DNA of 64,000 bases from Scyliorhinus canicula. Taxonomy: Eukaryota. The notes under the pieces were generated by a model. It was not told the origin of the DNA and searched no databases. It saw nothing but the letters and a program-made list of their open reading frames with translations. The stretch lies in the NCBI RefSeq assembly GCF_902713615.1, contig NC_052158.1:44293159-44357158 (forward strand), given 5' to 3'. Shown piece by piece: positions 806 to 54,441 of the stretch (the first letter of the stretch is position 1; every line of letters begins with the position of its first letter). The translations under genes and the position numbers were made by a program.

Positions 806-862
806 TGGCAGGAGTGCGATTTGAACACACGCCTCCAGAGAAGCCTGAGTGGTCATTCTGAC
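806..862 (-). pseudogene. tRNA-Leu(CAG)-derived pseudogene with internal deletion
   Basis: Minus strand reads GTCAGAATGACC...CTGGAGGCGTGTGTTCAAATCGCACTCCTGCCA, matching the 5' and 3' ends of vertebrate tRNA-Leu-CAG. Confidence 0.6.
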
Positions 863-1467
863 TAGCTGCAAGTAGAAGCAAGCTACCTGCACAAAGCGAT
901 TTAGATTGCATATTTATTGTCATTATACTGTAGTTAGAACTCAACGGAAATGTGTTTTTCCGTTTTTCAACACCAGCCAGAGTCGTGTATCTTCAGTTCC
1001 TTCCGTCCCCAAGCCGCTGGCGGGTGAGGAGATCCTCATAGCTGCATTGATCTGTTTGCTCAAATCAACAGACCGAATTCCCGCCCTGCCTGTTCTTCAC
1101 ACGAAGGTGTTGGGAGGATAACATCTGGTCAACTCGGAATTCACAAGGCCAATAGGATCACAGTGTCTGTGAGGTAATATAAGGGCTTAATCCTGTTTTT
1201 ATTCATTTTGGGAATGTGGGCATGGCAGGTTAGGCGAGCATTTAATGCCCATCCCGAGTCACCCTTCAGACAGGACTGGTGAGTTGCTTTCTTCAACCTC
1301 TGCAGTCCTTCGGGTGTACGTACATCCACTGTGCTGTTGGGAAGGGAGTTCCAGGATTTTGCCCCAGCGACAGTGAAGGGACGGCAATATATTTCCAAGT
1401 CAGGGTGGTGGGCGACATGGAAGGGAACCTCCAGGTGGTTGGGTTCCCAGGTATATTCTGCTCTTTT

Positions 1468-1945
1468 GATTTGATTTGATCTATTATCACGTGCACTTGG
1501 GTACAGTGAAAGGTATTCTGCATACACTTAAGACAGATCATTCCAGACCTGAAAAAACATAGGACACACGATAAATACACAGACAGCAGCACCGGAGTGT
1601 AGTACCACTCGGTGGGAAGATGTGAAAGGAGATCAGTGTAGACCATAAGATGGCCAATCAGCAGTCTGGTAACAACGGTGAAGTAGTTGTTTTGAACCTG
1701 TTAGTCCCTGTTCTCAGACTTTTGTCAGTCCTCCCCGATGGAAGAGATAATAACCCGGGTGGGAGGGGTTTTTGATAAAGCTGCCCGCTTTCCCAAGGCA
1801 ACGGGAGGTGTAGACAGAGTCAATGGATGGAAGGCAGGTTTGCATGATGGACTGGGCGGTCTACATTACTATAGTTTTTACGGTCTTGGGCCGAACAGAT
1901 CCCGCACCAGGCTGTGATGCAGCGAGCTAGAATGCTTTCTATGGT
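1468..1945 (-). mobile_element. Rex1/Babar-type LINE 3' fragment
   Basis: (caaat)n tail on the minus strand and IESILARCITAW-like motif, similar to the copy at 51.7 kb. Confidence 0.65.
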
Positions 1946-2476
1946 CCTGGGTTTGGAAGCTGGTGTCTAACAAACCTTCCGAATTTACTGTAGTGTATCT
2001 TGAAGATGCTACACACGGTTGTCACTTTTGGTCGGTGGTGGAGGGTTTGGATGTTACACTTACACTAGTGAAAATGTGGAGATACACGAACTCACTTACA
2101 ATACCAGAGACTGACAAATACAGAATTACTTTCAATCTAATTCACCGTTCCGGAAACCGACTGTCGGAACAAATCGCTTGTTCACGCACAATCCCACCGA
2201 CACAATCAGAAAGGGACCCAACGCTCACACAGCAGCAGAAAATGCTAAACACAGTCTGAATATGACACAGATATATTGTGCCAGTGAATGACAGATACAG
2301 AATGATTAATTTATACTCACACAAAGTAGAAGAAGTGGGTCTGAGAGAGAAACCTCCCTCTGTCCGTCTATTTCTACTGATAGGTTCAGAACGTGTCCAC
2401 TTAACTTGTTAATGGCACATGAATGGTTGGACTGAAATACAACACAGATATACTGTACCAGAAACTAGCACGCAGC

Positions 2477-2558
2477 GACGAGGTGGCCGAGTGGTTAAGG
2501 CGATGGACTGCTAATCCATTGTGCTCTGCACGCGTGGGTTCGAATCCCATCCTCGTCG
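2477..2558 (+). tRNA. tRNA-Ser(GCT)
   Basis: 82-nt GACGAGGTGGCCGAGTGGTTAAGGCGATGGACTGCTAATCCATTGTGCTCTGCACGCGTGGGTTCGAATCCCATCCTCGTCG; canonical cloverleaf with long variable arm; TTTT ~16 nt downstream. Confidence 0.97.
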
Positions 2559-3019
2559 ATCTTTCATCCACCATTTTCTCAGAAGTAAATCACTTTTGCC
2601 ATAAGGTGGAGAAACTGATGTGACAATCCAGTCCAAGTTATGAGGCCACATTGTATCGAGTTGATTTCGGAAGCGCCCGAATTCAAAGACTGAGTTGAAC
2701 AGATTGAATACTAAGAGAGGAACTACTTTGTCTATTGGGGAATGTCAAAGTCAAGCCATATTTCTTTGTTCAGGGGAATGCGAGTTTAACAAATATTCAC
2801 ATTAAGCCAACAGAAATCTGCTAAACTGAGGAAAGAGTGGATTCACTAAATGAATTGATTACTTTAATGTAGCGGCGGCAGCGCATATTCACCTGAATGA
2901 TACAGGTATAGAAGGTTTCAATTATGAGGACAGCCTGGAATCATAGAATGGTTATAGCAGAAGGTGAGGCCATTCTGCCCGCTTGTCCGTGTCAGTCGCC
3001 AGTAGTTGTCTCGTATTCC

Positions 3020-3195
3020 CGTGATAAAAACAGAAAATGCTGGAAAATCTCAGCGGGTCTGGCAGGATTTGTGGAGAGGGAAACAGAGAATCGGAAGAAG
3101 GGACATACTGGACTCGAAACGGTAACTCTGTTTATATCGTCACAGATGCTACCAGACCAGCCGGGTTTTCCCAACATTTTCTATTTGTATTCCAG
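3020..3195 (+). mobile_element. Short Penelope-derived-like repeat with imperfect terminal inverted repeats and a degenerate hammerhead-like core
   Basis: aaaatgctggaaaatctcagc ... ccgggttttcccaacatttt inverted ends; central (c)ggaagaagggaca...gactcgaaacg. Confidence 0.45.
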
Positions 3196-3858
3196 GTTTT
3201 TATGAAGAATCTCCATGGCGACCTTGCCTTTGTACTCGACGCTTCTATTTATAAAGCCAGGTTCCAAACGCCTTTTGTTCTGTTCCCTGTGGAGACCAAC
3301 GAACCCAAAAGAACCAAATTAACCCAATGATCCCAATGAGAAAAGCAAGAGACAACTGTTTATTTCTTTTGATTTTACTTCAGCAATCAAACAAAATTCA
3401 ACCTCAATTAAACATGAAGGAAGAAACAAATTGCAGTTGATACAATCCACACGTTGTGCATTATTTTTGGTCCCAACGCTAGGTGAGGTTGCTGGGATAG
3501 AATGGCGGTGCGGGCTTGGGAAGGGTGCTCTTTCAGGCTCTGGTGTAGACTCGATGTGCCGAATAGCCTCCTTGTATATAGCACTTGTATATATAGAATA
3601 AGCCCGACACTGACAGCGTACCACACTCACGTATGGTGAGCAAGACTGGCATGTTCAGAATGTCTCTCACACTCTCACATATTACCAGTGAGTGACAGAT
3701 ACAGAATGAATCCCACATTCACAAACTGGAACTAAGGAAACATCATCTCCACATTTTAATTTTTCTAAATCCCGCCGTCCCAAGTTCAATATACTGTGAA
3801 CAATTCTTGTCTCTTCCCTCTCTCTCTCTGAACTGTGAACTTCGCTCTACCAGAGTGT

Positions 3859-3876
3859 GCTGCCATCTACTGGCCA
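3859..3876 (-). promoter_or_regulatory. CTCF-like motif
   Basis: Minus strand TGGCCAGTAGATGGCAGC closely matches the vertebrate CTCF core consensus. Confidence 0.55.
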
Positions 3877-4339
3877 CAACACAGAACCGCAAGAGAGCGG
3901 GAGAAATTCACATGAATTGGCGGCGTTGCAGAAACAGGTCAATGTGAGGAATCAGTAATGAAATGAAATGAAAATGAAAATCACTTATTGCCACGAGTAG
4001 GCTTCAAATGAAGTTACTGGGATGTGACTGGGGGGGGGGGGGGGGGTGTTAGTAGTAAATAACAACAAATAAATTGATATTCTTGTATTTCCCCATGGAC
4101 TTGGTCAATTTGGAAATATTTATCTTAAGGAGCAGAAATGTTTTTAAGTGAACGCTGGATGAGAGGAGTGAGAATGGATTTCAATGACAACCAAATAATG
4201 TTGCATCAAGTAGACCATAGAATCCACCGATCCTTTAGTCTGGGTGGGCATCTCCTGGGCCACTGTAACAATTGGAGAATAATCTGGTTTTAATAAGTCC
4301 ATTGTGGATTGGATGAATGAAGATTTGCAAATTGTTTTC

Positions 4340-7512: not shown

Positions 7513-8447
7513 TGTTGCTCGTTCTGGGTGAGTGTGCTTAACACTCGATTTGGCTCTGTTTTGTTACTTAGCTTTGGAGTCACCAGGTATCGTTAAGATA
7601 CCGCCACAAGTTTCAAGGTCAAGTTCAAAGCAATAAAACCATACACCAATTAGTAAGTTCAAACAAATGAGTTTATTATAATACAATTATAAACTACTCA
7701 TGCACACGCTAAGATGACTAAACTATTCCCACCACTAAATAGACCAATACTTATCTGAATAAGGACCTGCCGGAGCAGGGGACAAGGCCTCTTGCTCTGC
7801 ACTGGGTCCGCAGACTTCAGGTTGGTACGGGTTAAAAGGGGTCAGGAGTGTCTATCTCTGGTAGCAATCGTTGTGAGACACTTACTTGCTGGCAGCTGCT
7901 GTCCGAACCTCTCCTCTCTCTCGGTCAAGGTCTTCTTCGGTAAAGGCTGGTTGAGAGGGCTGGTCAAGAGAGGAGGGCTGGTCAAGAAGAACAAACTGAA
8001 TTTGGGACCTGTCTTTTATAGGTCCCAGGGCTTCGCGTCCTTTTTGGCAGACCCTCTATCTGCTGGGGATCGATTGGGTCTCTTCCCAATCGATTTGTTT
8101 GAATCCGTCCATTACTAAGGTTGTCCCTCAGCTACTGGGCGGGCCTTCAGGTGCTTTGTCTTCGAACCCCGCTGGTGCCGGGGTGTCTGGCTTCCCATAC
8201 AATGTTGCAATAACTTCCCTATTTGTGTCCTTTGTCCCTGGGATCGTTCCATTACTATGCTAACTGTCCCGGAGATTGCCTCATTAGTATGCGGAATGTT
8301 TGTTTCAGTGCTGTCTGCTCTCTTAGCAGACATAATACACAGTGGCTTGTTGCAGCCTGCTTGTGCTGCAAACTTTGTCCATTGTACCCTGCAAGCTTTG
8401 CGTTCCTCCATTTTGTATTAAGGGAATGGCCAACTTCAGTGGCTACA
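7513..8447 (-). repeat. 3' LTR (935 bp)
   Basis: Minus strand TGTAGCCAC...AACGAGCAACA (TG..CA); TATAAAA at 8014-8020 and AATAAA at 7672-7677; near-identical to 18584-19403. Confidence 0.93.
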
Positions 8448-8457
8448 CTTCCTCCTT
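8448..8457 (-). promoter_or_regulatory. Polypurine tract
   Basis: AAGGAGGAAG immediately precedes the 3' LTR on the minus strand. Confidence 0.75.
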
Positions 8458-8611
8458 GTGATCCTCATGAGAAATCATGAAGGATCACCCGAGTTCGGTG
8501 TCTTTGGGTTCCCTGACCTCAGCGAGTTCCATGGCCTCTGCACTTTCCTCAATTATGCCAAAAAACTTTATCTAACAATTTCTGATTGGCGCTATGTCAA
8601 AGGGGACATGC

Positions 8612-9684
8612 ATAAGAACATAAGAACATAAGAACATAAGAACTAGGAGCAGGAGTAGGCCATCTGGCCCCTCGAGCCTGCTCCGCCATTCAATTAGATC
8701 ATGGCTGATCTTTTGTGGACTCAGCTCCACTTTCCGGCCCGAACACCATAACCCTTAATCCCTTTATTCTTCAATAAACTATCTATCTTTACCTTAAAAA
8801 CATGTAATGAAGGAGCCTCAACTGCTTCACTGGGCAAGGAATTCCATAGATTCACAACCCTTTGGGTGAAGAAGTTCCTCCTAAACTCAGTCCTAAATCT
8901 ACTTCCCCTTATTTTGAGGCTATGTCCCCTAGTTCTGCTGTCACCCGCCAGTGGAAACAACCTGCCCGCATCTATCCTATCTATTCCCTTCATAATTTTA
9001 AATGTTTCTATAAGATCCCCCCTCATCCTTCTATATTCCAACGAGTACAGTCCCAGTCTACTCAACCTCTCCTCATAATCCAACCCCTTCAGCTCTGGGA
9101 TTAACCTAGTGAATCTCCTCTGCACACCCTCCAGCGCCAGTACGTCCTTTCTCAAGTAAGGAGACCAAAACTGAACACAATACTCCAGGTGTGGCCGCAC
9201 CAACACCTTATACAATTGCAACATAACCTCCCTAGTCTTAAACTCCATCCCTCTAGCAATGAAGGACAAAATTCCATTTGCCTTCTTAATCACCTGTTGC
9301 ACTTGTAAACCAACCTTCTGTGACTCATGCACTAGCACACCCAAGTCTCTCTGAACAGCGGCATGCTTTAATATTTTATCGTTTAAATAATAATCCCGTT
9401 TGCTGTTATTCCTACCAAAATGGATAACCTCACATTTGTCAACATTGTATTCCATCTGCCAGACCCGAGCCCATTCACTTAACCTATCCAAATCCCTCTG
9501 CAGACTTCCAGTATCCTCTGCACTTTTCGCTTTACCACTCATCTTAGTGTCATCTGCAAACTTGGACACATTGCCCTTGGTCCCCAACTCCAAATCATCA
9601 ATGTAAATTGTGAACAATTGTGGGCCCAACACGGATCCCTGAGGGACACCACTAGCTACTGATTGCCAACCAGAGAAACACCCT
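8612..9684 (-). mobile_element. Young 5'-truncated CR1 LINE nested in the provirus; RT C-terminal ORF uninterrupted
   Basis: ORF 8721-9725 with [31 protein letters not shown]; (aagaacat)n tail at 8612-8643. Confidence 0.93.
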
Positions 9685-9958
9685 GGCATTATCAATTGAA
9701 ATCGGGAACCTCTAACTATCCTCAATAAACTACTGTCATCTCATATTTAAACATTCTACAACATTCTAAACCCTTAATCATTCACACAGCAGCATCATTA
9801 CATTTCATTCTCTCTGACTCGGCAGTCGAGGGCAGAGGTACATAATTAATAGAAAGAATCTCTTTATTTTACAAAGGCATTGAGTATAAAAATAAATACT
9901 TGGTTACATTTCCAGGGGTTCGGGGGACTGGTGGAATCCAAAAATAGGGGATCTCACT

Positions 9959-10261
9959 CTATACACTGTTGAGGCACGAGAGCGGTAAAACTCTCCTTCT
10001 CCATTTCCTCATCCTGAGGGTTTGGACTATAATACAGATGATCGCCATTGCTAAAAGTGATTCTATAACGTACAACAAGGAGTACCATGTCAGAAATCTG
10101 GTACACCAGGTCGAGGTACTGTTACCATTGACTGGGCTGGGGGTGGTCTGGGTTTGGGAGAAGTTAGCAAACGTTGTACTGTGGGAAAGGGGGTTTGCGT
10201 CCACGCGCAACCACGCAGATGCCACAAAAGCTAAAAACATTGCAATTGGAGTGCTTTTCAT
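9959..10261 (-). CDS. Provirus accessory ORF: ~100-aa predicted type I membrane glycoprotein in the env position
   Basis: MKSTPIAMFLAFVASAWLRVDA signal-like N-terminus; S/T-rich ectodomain with NFS and NST sequons; WYSLLYVIESLLAMAIICIIV TM; RMRKWRRR basic stop-transfer; same strand as gag-pol. Confidence 0.6.
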   Translation of the reverse strand: MKSTPIAMFLAFVASAWLRVDANPLSHSTTFANFSQTQTTPSPVNGNSTSTWCTRFLTWYSLLYVIESLLAMAIICIIVQTLRMRKWRRRVLPLSCLNSV

Positions 10262-11186
10262 CTTCTCTCTCTCTTTTGTCCTCTCTTCCCTTCCTGGGAT
10301 CTTGCTGTGCTGTTGCTTCGGTTCCTCTATCGAACGTCCAAAAGCTATGGAATCAAGCATTTTATCTGTTAGTGTTCAGCTTAATATCTTGACTTTAAGT
10401 ATATCTGTCCTCTTGTTCCAAATTTCCCTTTATGATGGTCACCTCCATGTTACTCACTCATTTGTTTTTTCAAAAGCAGATTTAGGACCAGACATATACT
10501 TAACTACTAAACCAGTGCGAGCCGTCTCGCAGAGTGTTGCAATTTACCATCCCAAAATGTTCCTGGATGTAAATAGCATGAGGGGTGCAACCAAAGGGCT
10601 GCATTAAACAAAACCAGAGGAAAACAAACTTTTAGAAATAAGACAGTCGAAATGGGGTGCGAATGGGCCGCGACGGGAAAGATTTGGGTGGAATCCCTGG
10701 GTACGGCGTGCTGTGCTCTACCCGAGCTTAGCTGACCAAAGGGGTGGTCCTCAGACAGGGTGGGTCCTCAATGCCGTTTCTCCACTGCCTGAACGACCTG
10801 GAACGAACGGGCATGAACGTAATAATTGTTGAATTGCAGCCTCCATTCCCGGAATGGAGGGGTACCTAAAAAAAGGGGGAGCCAAGATGCTCCTAGTGGG
10901 ATGAAGAGCCTTAAGTTGGGCTCCAGATATTGCAGTTGAGTCAAGTTCTCAGAAATGTCGGCGGACAAACTAACGTGCATGTGAGGTGGTCACAAGCTTT
11001 TTGGCTGAAAAGCGAGTGGCCAATCTCCATGTCAAACACTTAACATACAAACAAACGTCTAAACATGCGTACAGGTTCCATCAGAAAGGACACCGTTTAT
11101 CTCTCAAGCGGTTCCTCTTTTTACATCATCTGGACACCTCACTTCTCTACATTCTCTGCGAACAGGGTCGCAAAGGGGTTGCCGTG

Positions 11187-12790
11187 TCAGGAGTCAGACT
11201 CAGAGTCATCCTCTTCTCCTGGATCCCATACCCTTGTATGGATCAGGCAAGAAATTTTAGCATTGTGTGACCGGGGGTCACTCTCGTCATTGCGGATAAG
11301 TCTCCATGAATTGTCCCTGTGCCAAATCGTGGGGTCTAACTGTGAATGAACGTTGTCGGGGTCATCATAGTTGGGCGGTGGGTTTGGGTGTGGGTCTGGA
11401 GTTTTTAGGTAAGTGATCTCCATGGGGTCAGTGGAGTCGGGGTCGAAGTCGCTGAAGTGGGGGCTGTAGGGTGGCGTGCTGTGGCTGTCCTCAGTCTCAC
11501 AGTCACTGTCACTGTCTCTGCTGTGGTAGCTTGTGGGCGTTTCGGGGCGTGGTCTGGAGTCAATGGGCGGAGTCGAGGTCGAGTCCGATGAGGAACTGGT
11601 CTGTGAGGGGGAGGGTGGAAATGTGTCTCGTGTGGGCGGGGTGAGGTGTTCTGCTGCGTCTAGCAGGACATGGTGGGAGTGGTTTGACTGTGTTCCATAA
11701 GCCTTTAACTGGTTAATATGGAACCACGCAGTCTTACCGTTGGGGTACTTTATCCGATATACTGACGGGCTGATTTTGTCCGAAATTGAGTACGGGCCGG
11801 AAAAGTTTGAGGCCAAAAACGTGCTGGGGTTATACACAGATAACATAACCTGTTGCCCAACCTGAAACTCTCTGGTATGGACATTTTTGTTGAAACAGGC
11901 CTTGCTCTGTTTCCGCCTTTTAACCTTTCATAGGGCGTCGGTCATGAGTGTGTGTGGGGTGACACCTGTTGATGCTGAAACAGTGTTTCGTATAAACATA
12001 AGTGCGAATGGGAGCACTGAATCCCAAGTTAAATTGTTCTCCTGTACCATCTTTCTAAGGGTCGATTTTAGAGTCCGATTCATGCGTTCCACTATCCCGC
12101 TTGACTGGGGGTGGTACGCAATGTGTAAATTTTGTTTGATTCCGATTATGGTCAGGACGTTCTTCATGACCGTCCTGTAAAATGAGATCCCTGATCTGAT
12201 TCTATACTTTTGGGGAGTCCCCATCTAGTAAAAATGTGGTGGGTCAGGATCTTTGCGGCTGTCTTTGCAGTGTTTGTATGAGATTGGAATGCCTCTACCC
12301 ATTTCGTAAACGTGCCTATGACCACCAGAACATATTTATAGCCATTCCTGCAAGGGGGCAATGGACCTATAAAATCGATCTCGAGGTTAGTCCAGGGACC
12401 ATTAACGGGGCGAGTGTGGCTGAGTTGTGCCTTCTTAGAATACCTTTCTGGGTTATTCTGTGCACAAATTAAACAGTTCTCGATGTAGTGTGTTAAATTG
12501 TCTCTTAAATTGGGCCACCAACAGAGTTGTCTAAGGTGGGCTGTGGTAGGGTCGATCCCTTGGTGTCCATGACCATCATGCAATAAGGCAATCATTTGAT
12601 TCCTGTCTTTCTCAGGAACCACATACAACTGGTCTTTTATAATCACACCCTCATGTGTGGTCAAATCGTGTTTGAATTTGTCGTACTGGGCCACAAACTT
12701 TCCTTTTAAAATCTCCCGGAGATTTTCGTCCTGCTTCTGTGCCTGTACTAAATCCTCTACGTCTGCCTGTGAGACCTGAACTGAACTCAC
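11187..12790 (-). pseudogene. Retroviral integrase (frameshifted) with long S/D/P-rich C-terminal tail
   Basis: HDGHGH...CLIC zinc motif; IDFIGP, SDQGSHF and GIVERMN catalytic triad; GPY motif; split across ORFs 12164-12790, 11928-12224 and 11187-11846. Confidence 0.92.
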
Positions 12791-12835
12791 AGGGGCTCTA
12801 GCTGGTGCGCTAGCTGGGGGTGTCCAAAAATGACC

Positions 12836-13275
12836 TCACCTGGAACCTGCTTTAGCCAGTGCGTCGGCTTTCACATTACCAGGGGGGGATGATCGATGGT
12901 GGCTTCTAACCTTCATAATGCCATACGTCTTGTCCTTTGCCTTCTCTACGATATGGTGGAGTAATGGGGCTGATGGAAGGGGCTTGCCGTCCGCGGAGAC
13001 AAAACCTCTTCTTCTCCACAGGGGTAGAAAATCTGTGAGGCTGTTACAGACATATACACTGTCCGAATATATATCTGCTTGGCTGGAGAACGAATCTGGG
13101 TGGTTCACTATGTATGCAATGGCCGTGAGCTCTGCTGCCTGCGAGCCTAAGTGACCGGGTAACTTTAGTGCTATCTCCTCTAGTGCATGTCCCTGCACAT
13201 CTTCCACATAAATACCGCACCCTGTAATGCGTTCGTCATCTAAAACTGTGGATGAACCGTCCACATAAATCCGTA
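12836..13275 (-). pseudogene. Second (retroviral-type) RNase H
   Basis: YVDGS, SQAAEL, YSDS, KVRSH and GNVKADALA: all catalytic residues present. Confidence 0.92.
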
Positions 13276-13340
13276 GGGGTGCACACGTGCCCGTGGGCTG
13301 GGGGCTCTGGCTTGAATTCCCTATCTTCCTGGGGGGTGTC

Positions 13341-14680
13341 TTAGCAATGAAGGGTCCTGTGTTGTGTAGGGGTGGCTACTATTTCGCATTCATGGGGTAG
13401 TCCTGGATACTGTAGGTTGTCTGCTAAAAATGTGTGTGTCTTGGTCCGTTTAACTGTTACGTCCCGTCCCTGTAACAGAAGTGTCCATCTAGCTGCTCTT
13501 ATCTGGCTCACTGAACCATCCTTCAGTCGTCCGTCTAAAAGTAACTGTGTGGGCGTGTTTTCGGTCAAAATGGTGATGGGGTTGAGTCCGATAATGTAGG
13601 AAAAATATTGTACTGCCCAGAATACCGCGAGCAGATGTCTTTCGCAGGCTGAGAAACCTTGCTCCACGGGGTCTAATAGTTGTGAGGCATAAGCCACTTG
13701 TCGTAGCTGCTCGTGCCATTCCTGAAGGAGCACGGCCGAGAGGGTCAGATCTGTGCTAGCTACCTCAATTGCATAGGGGGAGAGTTGGTCTGGAACTTGT
13801 AGCGCGGGTGCTGCGCTAAGGGCTTTCTTTAACTCTTCCCCAGCCTCTGTATGCTGCGGAAGACATTCCCAAGGTGCTCCTTTCTTAAGGAGGTCTGAAA
13901 GTGGGGCTGCCTTGGTCGCAAAACCATCGATATGGTTCCGACAATACCCAACCAGTCCTAAAAATGACCGGAGTGCTGAAACATTTTGGGAAAGGGGCAA
14001 TTTGACGATCGAGTCAATTCTTTTGAACTCGATCTCGCGTTTGCCGTGTGTGATGACTGTACCCAATTACATCACTTGATTATCCAATATTTGGGCCTTT
14101 CTGGGGTTAACCTTACATCCGATTGAGTTCAGAAGTTCCAGGAGTTCAGACAGAAGCGTGATGTGCTCTGCCTTGGTGTCTGTCTGCAGCAATAGGTCGT
14201 CCACATACTGTACCAAACATTCAGGTCGGGAAAATTTTGCTAGTCCATTTGCCAGCTGTCGGTGGAAAATGGAGGGGGAATTGTGGAATCCTTGTAGGAG
14301 GCATGTCCACGTGTACTGCTGTCCTTTGAATGTGAAGGCAAATTTGTACTGGCACGCCTTTGCCAATGGGATTGACCAAAAAACCGTTGCTAATGTCCAA
14401 TACCGTGAAATATTTGGAGTGGAGTCCCTGCTTGAGCATGGTCTCGGGACTTCTTGCTACCGTGGGGGCTACTGCTGGGGTTACTTTGTTGAGTTCCCGA
14501 TAATCAATGGTCAGACGCCATGATCCGTCGGGCTTCCTCACTGGCCAAATAGGGGCATTATTAGTCGAGGCTACTGTCCTAAGTACACCCTGCTCTAATA
14601 AGGTCTCTATAACTTTTCCAATTTCTCCCTCTGCTTCGAGGGGAAATCGGTATTGTCTCTGTGGTCTCGGGTTAGGTGAC
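13341..14680 (-). pseudogene. Reverse transcriptase plus degenerate RNase H tether
   Basis: PRPQRQY, KPDGSWRLTIDYRELN, LDISNGF, QGFHNSPSIF, YVDDLL, LRSFLGLVGY; the tether has EVAS and TEN instead of TDAS and TDH. Confidence 0.92.
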
Positions 14681-14720
14681 TGGCAAATGCTGTCCTGTGC
14701 TTATTCAAAAATAACCTTAT

Positions 14721-15227
14721 TCAAAATGCCCTAACCTGTTTGGCCGTGCTAAGTGTGGTCGGGTCAAAACAATAGTCGCCTACTGCGCTTATCCTGTTCG
14801 CATACTCTCCTACTGTGAGCGTTGCGGGTGCTCTGTCTGATTTTGCCATTCGCCAGACACACTGATTTACTGGATCGAACGACAGGCTGTGGGCATTCAT
14901 AAAGTCAATGCCCAATATGTGTTCTGCTGTGCGGGACAGATTAACTAAAACAACGGGGTGTCTGGTGGAGATGTTCCCTCGCCGGATTGATACAGGGGTT
15001 GTAATGTGTCCCTGCTGTGAGTGACCTGTAAAGCCGCTGAGGGTTATTGAAGCTGTAGTGGGCCACGTGTCTGCCTGTGGTGTGGTGGAGGAATTAATGG
15101 TTGTGCGGGATCCTCCTGTGTCCCAAAGTAATTCTATGGGCTCTCCCCGAATTTTCGCCGTGACCACCGGTCTTCCGGATTGGTCCCAAAGGGTGTCACA
15201 GACCCAAGTGGGGGAGCCCGAACACCG
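14721..15227 (-). pseudogene. Retroviral aspartic protease
   Basis: LWDTGG active site and ILGIDF motif; in frame with the gag end across one TGA. Confidence 0.88.
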
Positions 15228-16878
15228 TCAGTCCGTTCCATCCACATTGGTCTGTCCTGACTGCATCCCTATACTGTGGCTAGGCTTTGCTTTGTTCCTG
15301 GTCAGAGTGCCTGTCTGCTGGCCTCTCTGAGATTTCTGCCGGGCATTGCATTTCCGAGCAAAATGCCCTAACTGTCCGCAGTTATAACATTCTTGTGATT
15401 TCGGTGGGGGGGTTGTCCTTTCCCTCATTTACCCATGCGGGGTTTTGGTGTGCTCTGACTGCCTGAATATATGCTGCAGCCTGAGCTTCTTCGGGGTTCT
15501 GTACTTTTATCTTGCCTTGGACAGATTGCTCCCAAGCACGGGACAGTCTTTTCAATACCCAGTTTTCACTATGGGCTGCTTCTGAGGGGTCATAATTGCT
15601 GCAGACATTCTGACCTGCATCTGTGGCCTGGGAGATTATTGTGTGGGCCCATTTAACCATATTTCTGCCTACACTTATTTAGGCCTTCGACTGGGTCTCC
15701 TCTGTTGTACCCTATCGCGTCTAAAATAGTTGTATGCATCTCTTCGAGGGTGCCTCTTCCAACGTTCTGTGGGTCGGGGAGGGTTGCTACTACCGATGAG
15801 TCTAAACTCAAAACTGTGAGCTTCACCTGCTCTTGCTCATCAAGGCCGTACATGGTCGCCTGCTGTTTCACTCGTGCGAAGAATTGGTGGGGGTCTGCAG
15901 TGGGGAGGAACCGGGTGATTTTCTCACACATGTCCCTTAGTTGGGTTACAGTTAAGGGGGTCGTGTATGTGACCTCGGGTGCGCCTTCTGCGGTTGCTTT
16001 TCTTTGGGTGGTGACTGGGTTCATTTTTGCAGGTGCTATCTGATCTGTGGGGGGTTGGGGGGCTTTCCTTTTCTGCTGCGCTGCTAGCGCACATGTTCCC
16101 TGAACATATAGCTGCACTGTTTCACTTAATCCCTGCCAATCTGGGGCATTTTCTTCATCTAACTGTGTCCCAAATGTCTCTTGGAACCCATTCTGTACAG
16201 AAAGCAGAGATTGCAGCTGCGCAATCTGCTTCCTACATTTCGCATGATCCACTGTACTTTGCCTTTGCTCAGTGGTGGCAGCATGGAGTGCCTTTAAAGC
16301 TGCCTTTCAGTCGCTACACTGCTTCTTCAGTGTCTCTACCTGCTTTTCTGCTTCTTCTTTTACCAAGACTGCACGCTGCACATCTTGATAGGCCTTTTCA
16401 TATTGAACTTGGGAACTGCTCAGATGGGCTAGACAAGACTGATGTGCCCTCTTGGAATCATCCACTTCTCTATCCTTATCTACCAGTCGTTGCCTTAAAC
16501 CTAGATTCTCCTTTTCGATGTCCCTGACATCCACTTTGCTCATTCTGTTCTTCTCCTCTAACTCTGCTCGGAGCTTCCTGACAACCTCCTCTGTGCCTCG
16601 CAATTGTGCCAAGCAGGACACAATTGCCATCGGCTTACGTGCTTTACCTATACTTTTCTTATGAATTTGAGATAGGTTCTCCCACCAAGTATGTCCTATA
16701 CACCCGGGACTTGTCTCCTCATTCACACGAAACTCATCCAAAGGGGCCATCCTTTCTCTTTGAGGTACTTCCTGAGTTCCAGCTCCCACACGGGACACTG
16801 GCCTACTCTGCTGCTATTGGTCGCTGCGACAATGAACTGCTCTGGGTTCATGAGGTGTTCCATTGCCTGCATGGCCAT
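15228..16878 (-). pseudogene. gag (frameshifted, probable internal deletion) with N-terminal coiled coil and single CCHC knuckle
   Basis: ATG at 16878 ([15 protein letters not shown]...); heptad-like EEVVRKLRAELEEK...VETLKKQ; CYNCGQLGHFARKC. Confidence 0.85.
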
Positions 16879-16885
16879 CTCTTTT

Positions 16886-18279
16886 TCTCCTAGCTGGTAA
16901 CTATAGGCCGGTGAGCCTCACGTCTGTTGTGGGTAAAGTCTTGGAGAGGATTATAAGAGATACGATTTATAATCATCTAGATAGGAATAATATGATCAGG
17001 TATAGTCAGCATGGTTTTGTGAAGGGGAGGTCATGCCTCACAAACCTTATCGAGTTCTTTGAGAAGGTGACTGAACAGGTAGACGAGGGTAGAGCAGTTG
17101 ATGTGGTGTATATGGATTTCAGTAAAGCGTTTGATAAGGTTCCCCACGGTCGTCTATTGCAGAAAATACGGAGGCTGGGGATTGAGGGTGATTTAGAGAT
17201 GTGGATCAGAAATTGGCTAGTTGAAAGAAGACAGAGGGTGGTGGTTGATGGCAAATGTTCAGAATGGTGTTCAGTTACGAGTGGCGTACCACAAGGATCT
17301 GTTCTGGGGCCGTTGCTGTTTGTCATTTTTATAAATGACCTAGAGGAGGGCACAGAAGGTTGGGTGAGTAAATTTGCAGACGACACTAAAGACGGTGGAG
17401 TTGTAGACAGTGTGGAAGAATGTTGCAGGTTACAGAGGGACATAGATAAGCTGCAGAGCTGGGCTGAGGTGGCAAATTGAGTTTAATGTAGAGAAGTGTG
17501 AGGTGATTCACTTTGGAAAGAATAACAGAAATGCGGAATATTTGGCTAATGGTAAAATTCTTAGCAGTGTGGATGAGCAGAGGGATCTCGGTGTCCATGT
17601 ACATAGATCCCTGAAAGTTGCCACCCAGGTTGATAGGGTTGTGAAGAAGGCCTACGGTGTGTTGGCCTTTATTGGTAGAGGGATTGAGTTCCGGAGCCAT
17701 GAGGTCATGTTGCAGCTGTACAAAACTCTGGTACGGCCGCATTTGGAGTATTGCGTACAGTTCTGGTCGCCTCATTATAGGAAGGACGTGGAAGCTTTGG
17801 AACGGGTGCAGAGGGGATTAACCAGGATGTTGCCTGGTATGGAGGGAAAATCTTATGAGGAAAGGCTGATGGACTTGAGGTTGTTTTCGTTAGAGAGAAG
17901 AAGGTTAAGAGGTGACTTAATAGAGGCATACAAAATGATCAGAGGGTTAGATAGGGTGGACAGTGAGAGCCTTCTCCCGCGGATGGAGGTGGCTAGCATG
18001 AGGGGATATAGCCTTAAATTGAGGGGTAATAGATATAGGACAGACGTCAGAGGTAGGTTTTTTACGCAAAGAGTGGTGAGGCCGTGGAATGCCCTACCTG
18101 CAACAGTAGTGAACTCGCCAACATTGAGGGCATTTAAAAGTTTATTTGATAAGCATATGGATGATAATGGAATAGTGTAGGTTAGATGGCCTTTAGTTTT
18201 TGACTTCCCATGTCGGTGCAACATCATGGGCCAAAGGGCCAGTACTGCGCTGTATCATTCTATGTTCTATGTTCTATGC
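16886..18279 (+). mobile_element. Young CR1 LINE inserted just upstream of the gag ATG
   Basis: [33 protein letters not shown]; (ttctatg)n tail; tctctttt duplicated on both sides. Confidence 0.93.
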
Positions 18280-18560
18280 TCTCTTTTAATTTGGAACGAG
18301 GGATATTAAGGCAATGCTTATAAAATACGGGTACGGCTTTCGCTATGTTCCGAATTATAAAACTCCTGACAGTTTGTCGCCACAATAATCTCTCGGTTTT
18401 ACCTTACAACCCTGTTAGTTACGCATGCAAAAAACACACTTCCGAATTAGGAGTATTGATTTGAACTACTTGAACACTCGTGGTTTTTCCTTTACCCAAT
18501 TGGATTTCAGATTCAAATTTCTGGGTTCTCTCGGGAGTGGGGGGGCCACTTCTAATCGAG

Positions 18561-18578
18561 TCCCGTCGGATGTTGCCA
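18561..18578 (-). promoter_or_regulatory. Primer binding site
   Basis: TGGCAACATCCGACGGGA begins 5 nt inside the 5' LTR; the complement extends into a T-loop-like TCGAGTCCC. Confidence 0.75.
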
Positions 18579-18583
18579 CTAAA

Positions 18584-19403
18584 TGTTGCTCGTTTTGGGT
18601 GAGTGTGCTTAACACTCGATTTGGCTCTGTTTTGTTGCTTAGCTTTGGAGTCGCCAGGTATCGTTAAGATACAGCCACAAGTTTCAAGGTCAAGTTCAAA
18701 GCAATAAAACCATACACCAATTAGTAAGTTCAAACAAATGAGTTTATTATAATACAATTATAAACTACTCATGCACACGCTAAGATGACTAAACTATTCC
18801 TACCACTAAATAGACCAATACTTACCTGAATAAGGAACTGCCGGATCAGGGGACAATAGCCTCTTGCTCTGCACTGGGTGCGCAGACTTCAGGTTGGTAC
18901 GGGTTAAAAAGGGGTCAGGAGTGTCTATCTCTGGTAGCGATCGTTGTGAGACACTTACTTGCTGGCAGCTGCTGTCCGAACCTCCCCTCTCTCTCGGTCA
19001 AGGTCTTCTTCGGTAAAGGCTGGTCGAGAGGGCTGGTCAAGAGAGGAGGGCTGGTCAAGAAGAACAAACCGAGTTTGGGACCTGTCTTTTATAGGTCCCA
19101 GGGCTTTGCACCCTTTTGGGCCGATCCTCTATCTGCAGGGGATCGATTGGGTCTGTTCCCAATCGATTTGTTTGAATCTCCCCAATACTGAGGCTGTCCC
19201 GCAGCTACTGGGCGGGCCTTCAGGTGCTTTGTCTTCGAACCCCGCTGGTACCGGGGTGTCTGGCTTCCCATACAATGTTGCAATCACTTCCCTATTTGTG
19301 TCCTTTGTCCCTGGGATCGTTCCATTACTATGCTGACTGTCCTGGAGATTGCCTCATTAGTATGCGGAATGTTCGTTCCGGTGCTGTCTGCTCTCTTAGC
19401 AGA
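18584..19403 (-). repeat. 5' LTR, outer ~117 bp deleted
   Basis: Colinear with 7513-8330 with a few percent mismatches; lacks the TGTAGCCAC terminus. Confidence 0.9.
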
Positions 19404-26488: not shown

Positions 26489-27792
26489 TTGATTTTCCTC
26501 CGTGAGGCACCATCTAAACCTGCGAAATCTTTCACCCGGAGGCGCAAGGGGAGCAGGTAGAGAGAAAAATACAGGCGTGTGTGGAGTTTGCACATTCTCC
26601 CCGTGTCTGAGTGGGTCTCATCCTGTTACTGATTTCTTCAAACTTTATCGAAACTTCAACTCCACAATATGAACCCATAAATGTGAATGCTTCACGGACA
26701 GGCTACCCGCTGTAGCACAGAGCCAGATGCGCGTGTTCCCCATTCCCACGAGGGAATTTCTGAACTTGTCCAACAGGCAGTCCAGAAATGCAGTAATTTG
26801 CACAGTGACTACTGTTGAAAAGTATTTTATTGTCTGTTAATTATTTGGGGCGTCCTATGGCTGTGAAAAGAACGACAGAAACTGCAGCCGAGCTCAGAAA
26901 GGACGCAGACAGATTGGATGAATGGGAGGACATGAGGCAGATGAAGAATGAAGTGATTCATTGTATTAAGAAGAAGAGCTGTAAGGTGGTTCTGAGATAA
27001 AGGGATCGAGAGAGAACGAGAGGACTGCAGCCTGACTCTTACTCTGAAAACCAGTTAGTGCGCCCTTGTAGATAGTGGATGTGTCTGAGAACAGGAGAAA
27101 AGCAGATCAGGGGCCTGTGATTTGTTTTATTTAGCCGGACCCTGATAAGTGAAGCAAACTTATATCCACTCAGTGTCTGTCTGAGAGCTGGCAAGCAATT
27201 GCGGCCGACATTGAAGCGGTTCCGAGTGAATTCGTTACAACAAATCAATTCGTTAAGAGGAGCTGGAATTGTGTTTTCAGAGACACGGTCATTGTTTCTT
27301 AAAAGATCAGTCACGCTTGTTTTTGTTTAGTTCAGTGATTTTGCGGAATCTATTTGGAGAGGCTGCAGTTGGTCAGTATCTGTATCTCTAACCTGCCCAG
27401 TTCCCCGGGCAGCGGAGCTCCATTTCTCTCCAGATGTGCGCACACAAGCGGCAAATCCAAATTATTGTGCATTGCTCCCATCTCCTGGCTGGACGCGAGT
27501 TGTGCAACAAGGTAACTATCCATACGTAACCCTTTAGAATTGGAGCCAAACAATATCAACATTGTGTTTAAAGATAAAAATTATTGCACCCATTAGAAGA
27601 ACACATATAATGCCCCATAGATCTACTTTCTGACTGAGCCACCCTGCTCCTCACGATCTATCAGGAAAGTTTAGATGTCCATGACAGCCATACTTGTAGC
27701 AAGATTATCTAGTGTCTGATTTAATACATTGTCTCGCTTCGTTGCTTGTGTATTTGTTCTATTAACACAGAGAGGGTGATATAGCCCGGTGA

Positions 27793-27856
27793 GCGATGGT
27801 GGTATAGCGGTGACTGTCTGAGCATTTGACCCAGGTTCAGTCCCGGGCTATCAGAG
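27793..27856 (+). pseudogene. Highly degenerate tRNA-Gly relic (paralog at 35834-35896)
   Basis: GCGATGGTGGTATAGCGGTGA...TTGACCCAGGTTCAGTCCCGG; anticodon arm partly deleted. Confidence 0.5.
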
Positions 27857-28019
27857 TGGTGAATTATTTAATTAGATATCGCAGTCAGGACAGAAAAGAA
27901 GGGGCCCTCCTCAAATAAAATTCACAAACATTCTCACCTCCATGTGTTACTAATGTAAAATCCAGCTTCGATTTCTTGTCAGTGGAAACTTTGTTTCAAT
28001 AAAAGCCGGACTTCAACAT

Positions 28020-31000
28020 TAACAAATGATTTCTCAGTCAGAGACAATGAGAGAAGCGAAGCTCAGCATAAACGGTGCTGTGGACACTCCAGGTGCCTGA
28101 TGAAATTAGCAACTAAAACAGTGAGATAATGATGTCCAATAATAAAGATAACTTAAACAGTGTGAGAACGGCAGCATCAGGACACAAGGACAAGGTGAGG
28201 TCACAGGCCAGAGTAAGAGTCCGATGTAATGACACCCAGAACATCAGAAATAAATTGCATCCACACATTTATTGCGGAATGGTGCCATCTCCTGGCTAAA
28301 CGGAAGTAGTACAGGACACTTTCATTCATGAGCATATCAAATTGGAGTGAAATAACATAAACAAAGTAAGAATTCTTACAAAATATTTTCAAGAAAATTC
28401 AATGCACAAAATGAAAGGTAAAGCTAAAGTCGCCGCAGCCCCGGGCGACCACAGGCTACTTTCCCCTTTGAGGGGAAGATCTGAGTAGTGGTGATTTGAT
28501 TTGAGGATTACCACACCTCAGAAGAGGGACAGGGCTGCATTGTGCTTCATGAATAATCCCAGCCGGTTCACGCCATTGGCCTCGCTCTGCATCTCAAACC
28601 AGCTCTCCAGCCAATTGAACAAAACCATGCCCCATGCCACAAAGGAAGCATTGCTGGGTGCTGAGTTGTATGCGTTGGTGGTATAGTGGTGAGCATAGCT
28701 GCTTCCCAAGCAGTGGACCCGGGTTCGATTCCCGGCCAGCACAATGACTTTTAAGCGTCTAACCCTGAGTTTAAAATTGAAGACAAGAAACAGTTCGAAC
28801 GTAAAATTCATGCGAAATTAGGACTGGTTGTGAAATAAAGAACTTTGGCCTCAAACCTTTTTCGAAGGTAAAATTAGGTTTTAATAGTCGTCGATTTGTT
28901 TATTTATTATTTACAGGGCGTTGGAGTCGCTGATGACGGCAGCATTTATTGTCCATCCCTAGTTACCCTTGAGAAGGTTGTGGTGAGTTGCCTTCTTGAG
29001 CAGTTTCACGATTTTGCCCAGCGCCATTGATGGAACAGCAATATATTTCCAAGTCGGGTACTGCTGGACTTCGAAGGGGACCTCCAGGTGGTGGGGTTCT
29101 CTGGTATCTGCTGCTCACAGCCAGACAGACCTGCAATAACCCTCAGTGTAGGAAAGACAACTCTGTCGTTTGACATAAAAGTAAAATACTTGCTGTAAAA
29201 CTGAAACGAAGACAGAAAATGCATCCTTGGTGAAACAGGTTGTTCCAATGAAAGGTCAGGAACTATTTCTCGTTTCACAGATGTTACAGATCCGTAAAGT
29301 ATTTTCATTTGTGCTTTTCCCTTTTGACTTGAGTCCTGCTTCCAGAGGATTTGTTCAGTATTTTCGACGTGTTTTTTTTTAATCCTCTATTTCCACAAAA
29401 TTGTGACATTGAAACTGCTATCACTTCTCCCCATTGTTATCTATTCTGTCGGTATTCACTGCACCGTCTAATGGAGACATACTCACAGGGCAGTGAGAGA
29501 GTTTATTGTTTCAGGTTTCAGGACTCTTTTGGTCCATTCGCAGCAACCGGCTCTCTGCAGAGGAACTCGGAATGCCGAGCCCCTCTTCCAGGAATCAGGG
29601 GACAAAATGTTGGTTGAAGAGTGAATAAAAGGTCTGAGGATTTGGGCTGAGATTCTCAGAGTTCTGGGGACAGAACAAGCTGGTGGAAAAATGAGGCAAT
29701 AGCTGGATACGAGTTTGGGATATTATCCAGTCTGTGCTGGAGCTGGGGGGGGGGGGGGGGGGGAGGATCAGTCGGGGGGCGGTGGAGCGGCGCTGCTGGG
29801 AAGGAAGTTCTCATGTCTGCCCACAAAGCTCAACGTTGGGGTTGAGGCGGTGATCAGGTTCCGAGCAGAGGTTAAAGCCTTTCACTGACTTTCGAGGTAC
29901 ATGTAACCTGTTAAAGTTAATTCCTCCATCCCCTCTTCATAAAGAAAAACTAAATCTGGAGGGAGTTAAAATGAGGTCTCATTCTTTTGTTGAGATCATT
30001 ATTCTCGCACTCTTGAAATGAAATGAAAATCGCTTATTGTGACGAGTAGGCTTTAATGAAGTTACTGTGAAAGTCCCTAGTCGCCACATTCCGGCGCCTG
30101 GCACGGGAATCGAACCGTGCTGCTGGCCTGCTTGAAAAGCCAGCGATTTAGCTGAGTGAGCTAAACCAGCCCCTCTTGACCATAGTCCTGAACTAGAGTT
30201 CCACACAACACTCAGCTCCCACTAAATCCAGGAATAAATACAGTATCCTATTCAAGCGGCAAATCTCGGATAAATATCAGCCAGTAACCGGGGTGATAAC
30301 CCCTCTGCTCCTGTGTCTTCGGCACAGCGTCCTGGCACCACTTAAAACAGAATGATAGGGTGGACATGGCCTCGGTTTAACAACTCCAATAGTGCAGCTC
30401 TCCTTCAATACTGTACTGGAGTGTTAGCCTTGCTCATTACGCACAAATTCTGCAATGGGATTTGAAGATACATCTTGTGTTTCAAAGGTGACAGCGACCA
30501 AGTCAGCCCCAGTGAAAGTGTTTAAGAAATCATCCAATCCACAGATACATGACTGGGGCAATTATGAGGTCATCTCCTGGCAGGTCACATGACAGCTGGA
30601 GCCACAAGGCATCACAATCAGATTTGTGACTGGATTCAAACCCAGATCCTGTCACAATGACTTTTCAAATAAAGCTGTCTGCTGCTTGAAAATACAATAG
30701 TTAAACGTCCCGCTTGACCATGAAGAGAGCTAGAGCGATATTTCCAAAACTAAATCCTTTGACAAAATAGTTGAAAAAAAAACATTGAGATTGAAATACT
30801 GTGAGGCAAAGTCAGGTTATTATTGAGAACTCTACTCAGAGAACGTCATTGGCTAACAGAGAAATCAGGTGAAGAATCCGAGTAAACCAACACCAGACAG
30901 CACGTCAACGTCAAAACTACATCAACTTTTGTGAAGATCAATGAGTAAAATCTGAGTGTTCCAGTTCATCAAGTAGACACATTCTCTGGATGAAGTATTC

Positions 31001-37593: not shown

Positions 37594-38548
37594 TGTAGCC
37601 ACCTGAGTTGGCCACTTCCCCAAGTTAAAATGGAGAATCGCAAAGACAGCAGGAAAAATGGACAGTCTAACCAAACAAGCAGTTTTGCAGAGTTCCTGTG
37701 TATCTTGCCTATGTCTCTGTGGCGCAATCGGTTAGCGCGTTTGGCTGTTAACCGAAAGGTTGGTGGTTCAATCCCACCCAGAGACGAGTTGTTGTTCCAC
37801 CCCAGGAATATGTGTTTTTAGGGGCAGCACGTTACCTTGGTGGTTAGCATAAATGCTTCACAGCTCCAGGGTCCCAGGTTTGGTTCCCGGCTGAGTCACT
37901 GTCTGTGCGGAGTTTGCATGTCCTCCCCCCGTGTGTGCGTGGGTTTCTTCCGGGTGCTCCGGTTTCCCACAGTCCAAAGATGTGCGGGTTAGGTGGATTG
38001 GCCATGCTTGGTATGGGATCCAATTGATTGGAAGTAAGCTCGGGGTCGGCCCAAAAAGGCACAAAGCCCCTAGGACTATAAGATAGAGCCCCCAAGGTCA
38101 GTTCACTCTCTTAGCCGGCCCTCCCAGCAGAACATCTCGAAGAACTTGACTGTAAGAAGGAGAGGCCTGGCCAATTGCTGCACCATCAAGTTACTCCCAC
38201 CTCAGGTCAACGCACGCTACGAGATAGACGCTCCTGACCCCTTAGTCCATACCAGCTGGAAGCCTGCAGATTCAGGATTGAGCAAGAGACCATTGTTCCC
38301 TGATCCAGCGGGTTCCCTTATCCAGATAAGTACTGGCCTGTTAGTGGTAGGAATAGCCTAGTATTTTGCTTGTATGCACGAATAGCAATTAACTGTGTCT
38401 TGATTTGAACCTTACTAATTGGTGTATTGAGTCGTTGATCTGAACTTGAACCACGTGGTGGTATCATAAAAGATACCTGGCGACTCTAGAGCTAAGTAAT
38501 AAACCAGAGCCAAGTGGGTGTAAAGCGCACTCACCAGAACGAGCAACA
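37594..38548 (+). mobile_element. Solo LTR of the provirus family with internal tRNA-Asn and SINE cassette
   Basis: TGTAGCCAC...AACGAGCAACA termini; ACAG TSD at 37590-37593 and 38549-38552; flanks rejoin as ...atggtggACAGgctttggg. Confidence 0.88.
37713..37786 (+). tRNA. tRNA-Asn(GTT)
   Basis: GTCTCTGTGGCGCAATCGGTTAGCGCGTTTGGCTGTTAACCGAAAGGTTGGTGGTTCAATCCCACCCAGAGACG; all stems pair; TTTTT at ~37815. Confidence 0.92.
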
Positions 38549-54215: not shown

Positions 54216-54441
54216 AGATGTTGGTGTTTGGAGAGAGAGGAGCAGGTGAAACAATCCTGACACATGTCGCACTGCAACAGTTGTCTCTCGTGTGGGTTCA
54301 CTAATGTTCCAGGAAGTCCAACTGTGGGAAGATTTTATTACAGAACTCACATTGATAGGGTTTCTCCCATATGAATCTTCTGGTGTCACACGAGGGTCGG
54401 AGACATGGTGAAAGCTTTTGACAAACTTCACACCTGTAGGG

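Follow-up and report, generated by a model that had tools for sequence, protein, structure and literature searches.

A retrovirus family without a detectable env in the catshark genome, represented by a decayed provirus and carrying a small predicted membrane-protein ORF in the env position

To which retroviral lineage does a provirus on contig NC_052158.1 of the catshark Scyliorhinus canicula belong, and how has its family multiplied? The stretch of DNA analysed here (the window, 64,000 nucleotides, positions 44,293,159 to 44,357,158) had given rise to the original prediction of a lokiretrovirus-like or basal spuma-like provirus whose presence in a shark would be new. The element in the window is one dead copy of a catshark endogenous retrovirus (ERV), a provirus that has decayed and lies on the minus strand (Table 1), and the RT, Gag and RNase H motifs named in the prediction all lie on that strand where they had been placed. 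By Pfam its domain order is aspartyl protease, RVT_1, RT_RNaseH (the tether), RNase_H, Integrase_H2C2/rve and an SH3-like C-terminus; no dUTPase domain was found in the element. The predicted location stands, with the corrections that the 3' LTR reaches 8447 and that about 2.4 kb of the provirus consist of two LINE insertions, the one in the leader being presumably CR1-like. The LTRs (7513-8330 versus 18584-19403) are the same at 781 of 818 aligned positions, about 95% (K2P 0.047). The primer-binding site in sister copies reads TGGCGACTCCGCCGGGAC, and its complement is found inside a host tRNA-Arg(tct) gene (one of four loci called by ARAGORN); reverse transcription would be primed by tRNA-Arg. 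Target duplications of 4 bp flank 18 of 19 solo LTRs. As argued below, the element probably represents an env-less family of canonical retroviruses, likely of the clade Huo, that likely copies itself by germ-line retrotransposition and encodes a small membrane protein, either an accessory protein or an Env remnant.

Table 1. Features of the provirus in the window
Feature	Position	Strand	Remarks
5' LTR	18584..19403	-	~117 bp absent at its start; TATA box, GTAAGT donor-like sites, AATAAA; ends ...CAACA
Primer-binding site, tRNA-Arg(TCT)-like	18561..18578	-	5 nt past LTR
LINE insertion, leader	16896..18274	+	directly upstream of gag ATG
gag	15228..16878	-	broken by frameshifts, a stop and a deletion; N-terminal half coiled-coil, middle capsid-like, one CCHC
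gag stop TGA, then CGG-TGT and predicted long stem-loop from +9	15140..15230	-	likely readthrough signal
Aspartyl protease (DTG)	14892..15227	-
Reverse transcriptase (YVDD)	13850..14690	-	broken
Tether (degenerate Gypsy-type RNase H)	13470..13859	-	PF17919, PF17917
Second RNase H, D-E-D-D	12842..13273	-	PF00075 E=1.6e-16
Integrase (HHCC, core, SH3-like domain) and low-complexity Pol tail	11142..12619	-	broken
Small membrane-protein ORF (predicted), env position	9959..10261	-	tail frameshifted in window copy
Second LINE insertion	8614..9685	-
Polypurine tract	8448..8458	-
3' LTR	7513..8447	-	935 bp, TG...CA

The prediction correctly recognized a retrovirus-type provirus with dual RNase H in a shark, distinct from ordinary Gypsy elements and from standard foamy viruses; the closest proteins with a name come from Scyliorhinus. 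Its description of a dead tether followed by an intact second RNase H holds: the tether is degenerate and, as we read its sequence, is without the Ty3-type acidic catalytic residues, and the second RNase H retains D-E-D-D (YVDGS, AELTA, YSDS, ADALA), but the frame of the latter is broken at both ends in the window copy. Because a tether and a second RNase H are common to all retroviruses and Odin, they are not diagnostic of lokiretroviruses. Nesting within Ty3/Gypsy was not seen and is rejected by the AU test (p 0.00018) as well as by the dual RNase H. Class I membership is rejected too (AU p 0.00053), and a standard foamy virus is at odds with a CCHC knuckle, gag-stop-pol in one frame and an RT outside the foamy clade.

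The element RT is that of a canonical retrovirus, outside class I, class II and the foamy viruses. Trees of RT and of RT plus tether place the element within canonical retroviruses (support 100/96, 100/99 and 100/100), with lokiretroviruses, represented by stand-ins picked by motifs matching published Loki rows, as a separate clade. RT identity is 48-58% to frog and coelacanth ERVs, 48% to SnRV (reference L031, assigned from its 10,688-nt length and RT motifs), 33-41% to loki-like sequences and 35-39% to foamy viruses. The favoured interpretation of the prediction, a lokiretrovirus and the first from a shark, can appeal to the dual RNase H, to a tether 37-44% identical to loki-like tethers versus 26% to that of SnRV, and to the integrase, which is about 45% identical to loki-like integrases (45-53% to its nearest relatives from frog, coelacanth and eel) and joins them in a tree without a CGIN1 row (94/91, without starred support), a lokiretroviral integrase being expected close to the CGIN1/NYNRIN type. 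Yet the AU test rejects a grouping of the element with lokiretroviruses (p 0.00037 and 0.00065), the RNase H tree places it outside a loki-plus-foamy group (98/97), its RT lacks the loki motifs NRCPFGY and EFNIFLHKA, no F-like Env accompanies it, and in a strict first search the best catshark matches to a loki-like Pol query came only from the element's own family, at 34-35%. We consider a lokiretrovirus very improbable, and refuted by where RT and RT plus tether are placed.

The basal spuma-like half of the prediction fares better. The AU p values for the element with foamy viruses (0.08 and 0.15) and with SnRV (0.083) are above rejection, a mixture tree gives a basal polytomy in which SnRV is apart from the element (85/96), and the best PDB match is foamy Pol. 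Together with the loki-like tether and integrase, this would suit a deeply branching lineage whose sister is either the foamy viruses or the whole of the other canonical retroviruses, 'Huo' then being a grade and not a clade. Such a placement is possible, if not likely: the foamy hallmarks fail, since Gag has a CCHC and gag, stop and pol share one frame, foamy RTs make up a 100/100 clade that does not include the element, and the lineage is a published one either way. One exact pattern for fish-foamy RT had no match in the catshark genome, which does not amount to a sign of absence. In trees without Odin, fish foamy-like ERVs, lenti-, alpha- and deltaretroviruses and named ERV-L/S, the element is closest to ERVs of frog and coelacanth, the grouping being supported at 93/97 and 86/97; a broad 'near+SnRV' set as a single clade is rejected (AU p 0.0098). 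The element likely belongs to the snakehead-related clade Huo. A probable homologue from a shark had already been catalogued in 2018: the whale-shark Rh_ty_ERV2 stands beside SnRV under clade Huo in Xu et al. (PMC6001957), the clade following from the text order of the PDF, and resembles the element by eye. Shark ERVs of this lineage are already published, and the claims of a shark lokiretrovirus and of a novel shark member both fall, the latter at the level of the lineage.

The predicted N-terminal coiled coil and single CCHC knuckle of Gag are borne out: the N-terminal half is rich in heptads, and a single CX2CX4HX4C lies at 15389-15348. The capsid region of a sister copy resembles Retrotrans_gag/Ty3 capsid clusters; modelled from one sequence, the capsid gave no usable structure (pLDDT 43). 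Gag and protease do share a frame, as had been claimed, but in the window copy solely across a TGA at 15230-15228. Because this stop is kept, as TGA-CGG, in 2,314 of 2,346 junction matches genome-wide, Gag-Pol is likely made via type II readthrough at UGA-CGG and a stem-loop. The stem-loop has z scores of -2.4 to -3.1 in only three of eight copies, and no two-sided covariation was found. UGA-CGG is the type II context of alphaviruses and coltiviruses, and passages of a 2026 review give other contexts for retroviruses; a retroviral gag-pol junction in this context is one of the useful points that remain.

The family comprises more than 2,300 copies in the catshark genome and includes a young subfamily with open genes. 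In these young copies, a selection made by score and so weighted towards intact ones, gag is open in 20 of 20, pol in 19 of 20 and the small ORF in 20 of 20, and LTR pairs are identical over their covered length in 8 of 19. Both gag and pol are under purifying selection (core genes dN/dS 0.02-0.17). Forty Env queries, a set that included no F protein, matched none of 101 family stretches while controls worked; these stretches are a sample of thousands of copies, the 3' part is missing from some of them, and an Env that has diverged strongly could escape. At the env position, 39 of 40 measurable copies have no ORF longer than 265 aa, the remaining case being the window's LINE, and ORFs there stay below 200 aa in those 18 young copies for which both the end of pol and the 3' LTR were placed. 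We found no printed account of the env-less state, of the young subfamily with identical LTRs or of the small ORF of about 114 aa.

These copies likely spread by retrotransposition within germ-line cells. Alternatively, the family could be non-autonomous and reinfect with the Env of another ERV, with the small ORF blocking superinfection or immunity. Other catshark ERVs do exist (class I takes in P0016 and P0017), one of them, ERV-Spuma.0-Sca, is annotated with env, and membrane proteins that are small and glycosylated can act as immunomodulators. We nevertheless judge a borrowed Env quite unlikely: because Gag and Pol are complete and strongly selected, retrotransposition in cis would be sufficiently served, and an SnRV Env query gave no matches in the catshark genome (one query, no positive control).

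The small ORF in the env position encodes about 114 aa (range 111-118). Its product is predicted, from hydropathy and a low-depth model with signal cleavage assumed, to comprise a signal-like N-terminus, an S/T/P stub with a sequon, a TM helix and a polybasic tail. The ectodomain is about 40 aa, an amphipathic-looking WCTKFMxWYS precedes the one TM helix, 6-8 K/R fall within 15 residues past it in 12 of 12 copies, and the N-glycan sequon is invariant; the N-myristoylation motif MGxxxS/T occurs in 0 of 12. The ORF is under purifying selection, weaker than that on the core genes: its dN/dS, a tally of variant types rather than events with CpG sites kept, is 0.34 for shared variants versus 0.81 for singletons (Fisher p 0.003), with 1.07 and 1.77 in its other frames and 0.67-1.59 in the flanks. 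A 68-aa ORF upstream was not treated as coding because its shared-variant dN/dS is 2.9. The small ORF is also present in an older subfamily, which is 64-83% like a homologue in S. torazame. The eight database matches are all gene models from Scyliorhinus; in them the ORF comes after N-terminal sequence that is unrelated to it and consists mostly of host exons. No homologue of near length and none outside Scyliorhinus was found (Atlas best 0.88), nor any Pfam family over cut-off or structural match; a metagenome scan gave one match of 28 residues. Because none of 42 ORFs located after pol in reference viruses is similar to it, descent from Env is unproven. A splice acceptor-like motif occurs in 30 of 60 copies, no splice joint was listed in four raw RNA runs, and none of the indexed runs containing the stretch is recorded as RNA; the ORF may be translated from a spliced mRNA in the manner of env. 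The product would be a glycosylated single-pass surface protein. Most likely it is an accessory protein without fusion activity, or else what is left of a shortened Env (signal peptide, membrane anchor and tail), and would help the element at the membrane.

The same features allow a bolder scenario, in which Env was given up for a tiny FAST/sORF2-like fusogen that passes capsids directly from soma to germ line without an envelope, and by which the lineage has kept invading catshark genomes since before two Scyliorhinus species split. Its position in an env-less element, its length, single TM, short ectodomain, basic residues and amphipathic-looking segment, its maintenance under selection and a Drosophila precedent would all accord with this. 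However, the myristoylation motif is missing, an ordinary secretory type I protein would better explain the signal-like N-terminus and the invariant sequon, searches gave neither a homologue nor a structural match, and selection on it is weaker than on the core genes. We regard fusion as unlikely. If it were true, the family would be the vertebrate counterpart of the MDG1 elements of Drosophila, and envelope-independent transmission would extend to vertebrate ERVs; if the protein does not fuse cells, the ORF would still be an undescribed retroviral accessory gene. Basal ERV lineages are little studied, and a recently active env-less family of thousands of copies is missed by surveys that require env.

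Comparison with known systems places the element among several partial relatives. By eye, Rh_ty_ERV2 shares the Gag blocks xTYTTP, RGDPVExLNKCRQ and WVLxxxxRAWE, one CCHC, a protease start W-x-C-D...WDTGGSxTTxN and a cartilaginous-fish host, whereas its protein as printed (PMC6001957) has no stop at the gag-protease junction. The frog and coelacanth ERV Pols P0001-P0010 ('NYNRIN-like') and the eel An_ro_ERV1, a strong match by eye, are nearest. SnRV likewise has a coiled-coil Gag, one CCHC and gag-stop-pol in one frame, and a UAG readthrough site is reported for it; unlike the element it uses UAG-GGC, carries a large Env and accessory ORFs, and has a Gag that does not align past the knuckle. 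Lokiretroviruses and Odin share the tether, second RNase H and a similar integrase (PMC7947760, PMC9040795), but their RT and RNase H fall in other clades; Odin is env-less, as the element is, and lokiretroviruses have a paramyxovirus-F-like Env that the element lacks. Class III XtERV-S/ERV-L resemble it in an in-frame gag/pol TGA and TGT...ACA ends, and env-less spread is known for ERV-L (PMC8278194); they differ in having no CCHC, a dUTPase, YIDD and 5-bp target duplications, against CCHC, YVDD and 4 bp in the element. In Spumaretrovirinae, Gag is without a Cys-His box and Pol has its own frame. ERV-Spuma.0-Sca (866-bp LTR, gag 1538-3796, env annotated; PMC10699275) is not the element, as the first 400 nt of the LTR and the layout differ by eye. 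Finally, sORF2 of the Drosophila MDG1 group, from an env-less LTR element, and the FAST proteins are single-pass proteins with polybasic tails (bioRxiv 10.1101/2025.03.14.642691). The small catshark protein departs from them, with no homology shown, in its signal-like N-terminus, glycan sequon and missing myristoylation motif, the last also absent from two of six Drosophila sORF2 proteins, and it agrees with their form of 60-210 aa, one TM, a short ectodomain and a polybasic tail.

The endogenous retrovirus has the anatomy observed in the original prediction, with Pfam domains for protease, reverse transcriptase (RT), tether, RNase H and integrase in that order, a dual RNase H and, by profile search, a single Gag zinc knuckle. 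Alignment of its LTRs (7513-8330 against 18584-19403) gave 781 matches and 37 mismatches (K2P 0.047), a divergence that roughly dates the insertion to ~47 Myr ago at the catshark rate assumed in PMC10699275, or to 11-107 Myr ago at rates from PMC7947760 and PMC4422223. Sister-copy comparison places a polypurine tract (PPT) directly before the full-length LTR, and the 5' LTR of the element is missing its first ~117 bp. Gag and pol of this copy are disrupted by several frameshifts, stops and deletions.

Features of the window, including repeats and zinc-finger arrays outside the element
Feature	Coordinates	Strand	Description
Element	7513-19403	minus	LTR pair and Pfam domains
3' LTR	8447 to 7513	minus	935 bp full length, TG...CA, by comparison with sister copies
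LINE fragment	8614-9685		interrupts element
Small ORF	9959-10261	minus	predicted membrane protein, env position
LINE fragment	16896-18274		interrupts element
Repeat pair	27601-28941 and 35642-36888		~1.3 kb, 77-96% alike, separated by ~8 kb; possibly two LINE copies or the LTR pair of another element
Solo-LTR-like fragment	~38100-38548	plus	diverged, 74% like element LTR, ends ...AGCAACA; probably an older relative
Tandem array	47460-48421		18-45-bp units
84-bp-related stretch	49671		further stretch related to the 84-bp repeats
C2H2 zinc-finger array	54416-55387	minus	10 fingers by regex, 84-bp repeats
Repeat pair	55787-56086 and 58362-58661		2,575 bp apart, 97% alike
C2H2 zinc-finger array	63763-63931	plus	3 fingers by regex, 84-bp repeats

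Phylogenetic placement was based on trees of 77 rows, 46 rows (mixture model) and 40 rows (RT plus tether), the two smaller sets thinned by hand from the 77. The snakehead retrovirus (SnRV), WDSV and MoMLV genomes were recognised by motifs, foamy and beta virus references were retrieved by motif, and lokiretroviruses were represented by stand-ins whose RT motifs match the Loki-Lca and Loki-Npa rows. The proposed lokiretroviral identity is not supported: all three trees recover lokiretroviruses as a separate clade (100/99-100) and place the element inside the canonical retroviruses (100/96-100), nearest to frog, coelacanth and further ERV Pols, and AU tests reject its grouping with lokiretroviruses (p 0.00037 and 0.00065). 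Groupings with Gypsy (p 0.00018) and class I (p 0.00053) were also rejected, as was the broad 'near+SnRV' set as a single clade (p 0.0098); those with foamy viruses (p 0.08 and 0.15) and SnRV (p 0.08) were not. The lokiretroviral impression arose in part because the element integrase groups with lokiretroviral integrases (94/91, unstarred), consistent with the reported closeness of the latter to CGIN1. The RNase H tree places the element outside the lokiretrovirus-foamy group. Related to the element lineage is a 15-member cluster of a 1,194-aa ERV-like Pol (P0011), one member named from hawk; it may represent co-option as a conserved gene, Ovex1 for example.

A catshark genome search for intact copies recovered young ones with open genes, some of them with identical LTR pairs. 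An RT piece gave at least 150 scored matches at >=92% identity, and a 30-nt gag/pro junction pattern gave 2,346 matches when the stop codon was left free to vary (2,314 with TGA; 0 for the reversed control), a lower bound on internal copies. Among the best 25 LTR matches, 19 were solo LTRs, 18 of these 19 with a 4-bp target duplication. We sampled the family in three age groups: LTR pairs are 87-96% alike in 20 old copies, where a pair was found; 89-100% alike in 61 copies near the window type (the window copy, 40 taken in the order listed, and 20 selected because their pol frames are long and open); and 99.0-100% alike in 20 young copies, with 8 of 19 pairs identical over the covered length. 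The young copies, top-scoring matches and hence biased to intact ones, have open frames for gag (20/20), pol (19/20) and the small ORF (20/20). Scyliorhinus canicula and S. torazame supply the nearest named database proteins, which makes the host a catshark.

In sister copies the PBS complements the end of a host tRNA-Arg(TCT). The gag frame closes with TGA-CGG-TGT in 19/19 young and 9/9 readable old copies, a 9-mer given as the type II readthrough context of Colorado tick fever virus. TGA occupies 46 of 48 readable junctions in the 61-copy set. Copies L019 and L158 carry AGA in its place, and a codon other than TGA stands there in 32 of the 2,346 genome-wide matches. A long stem is predicted from +9 after the TGA (z < -2 in 3/8 copies); among 64 copies most outer pairs are kept at 97-100%, two at 61-80% and four inner ones near 30%, the changes being one-sided U-A/U-G with no two-sided covariation. 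This conservation and the predicted stem make it likely that Gag-Pol is produced by putative TGA readthrough.

No Env match was obtained at E<0.01 with 40 queries against 101 copy stretches, in a screen whose positive control recovered cross-matches among reference viruses. The integrase-to-PPT gap is mostly ~2.4 kb in the 40 copies with both placed, has the same spacing in the old subfamily and, except for the window's LINE, contains no ORF >265 aa in any of the 40. Gag and pol alone have been reported to suffice for retrotransposition in cis.

The small ORF lies ~1 kb after pol, encodes 111-118 aa and is present in 45/61 copies, most of the others being without the 3' region. The predicted protein starts with a hydrophobic segment and keeps an invariant sequon; it has a modelled helix at residues 48-96 (pLDDT ~90 over 61-80), with 6-8 basic residues after the TM. 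Counting variant types rather than independent events, dN/dS is 0.81 for singletons and 0.34 for variants common to at least 4 copies, which comprise 47 N and 51 S without any stop (Fisher p 0.003); the same analysis gave 0.02-0.17 for gag/pol, and values were 1.07 and 1.77 in shifted frames and 0.67-1.59 in flanking DNA. We favour an accessory protein or Env remnant. A fusogen like sORF2 or the FAST proteins is improbable: the product satisfies the size, topology and polybasic criteria applied to such proteins (bioRxiv 2025.03.14.642691), but has no myristoylation motif and appears to carry a signal peptide.

Database homologues of the small ORF comprised eight gene models, all from Scyliorhinus; because these join it to unrelated N-terminal sequence, mostly host exons, they hint that a functional splice acceptor lies immediately upstream. 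Of 60 copies, 30 have an acceptor-like motif, and the LTR contains donor-like GTAAGT sites. In S. torazame the ORF is predicted to form the final exon of six isoforms (P0245-P0250), which come from five loci (KIAA1958, SUGCT, B3GAT1-like, HEPACAM2-like and a galectin-domain gene), for which ERV exon trapping is a possible explanation. In four raw poly(A) RNA runs, reads across the element numbered 824-4,080, with 42-66% continuing into unlike sequence and no splice joint; in the three bulk runs they lie mostly in the expected sense-RNA direction. We read these as low family-level transcription. At positions 1609-1646 of stretch L175, 56-150 reads per bulk run (three runs), almost all with the same orientation, match the small ORF tail over just ~37 nt and continue on both sides into uniform unlike sequence.

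A probable homologue from a shark has been in print since 2018: the Gag and protease blocks of whale-shark Rh_ty_ERV2, in the supplement of Xu 2018 (PMC6001957), closely match the catshark family by eye. In the text order of that PDF it stands beside SnRV under Clade Huo, and an SnRV-related lineage was reported in elephant shark (Han 2015). Judged by its layout and by how its LTR begins, catshark ERV-Spuma.0-Sca is a separate element. A literature search, with Repbase, Dfam and subscription papers outside its scope, found no account of env loss or of the small ORF in this family, which may nevertheless already have a library entry. The likeness to Rh_ty_ERV2 covers Gag and protease; whether the small ORF is new depends in part on the 3' end of that element. 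SnRV has UAG-GGC at its junction, whereas the catshark family has UGA-CGG. We regard the element as a variation on a known type: its shark ERV family, likely from the Huo/SnRV-related lineage, lacks a detectable env, has been active recently and carries a selected gene for a small, predicted membrane protein.
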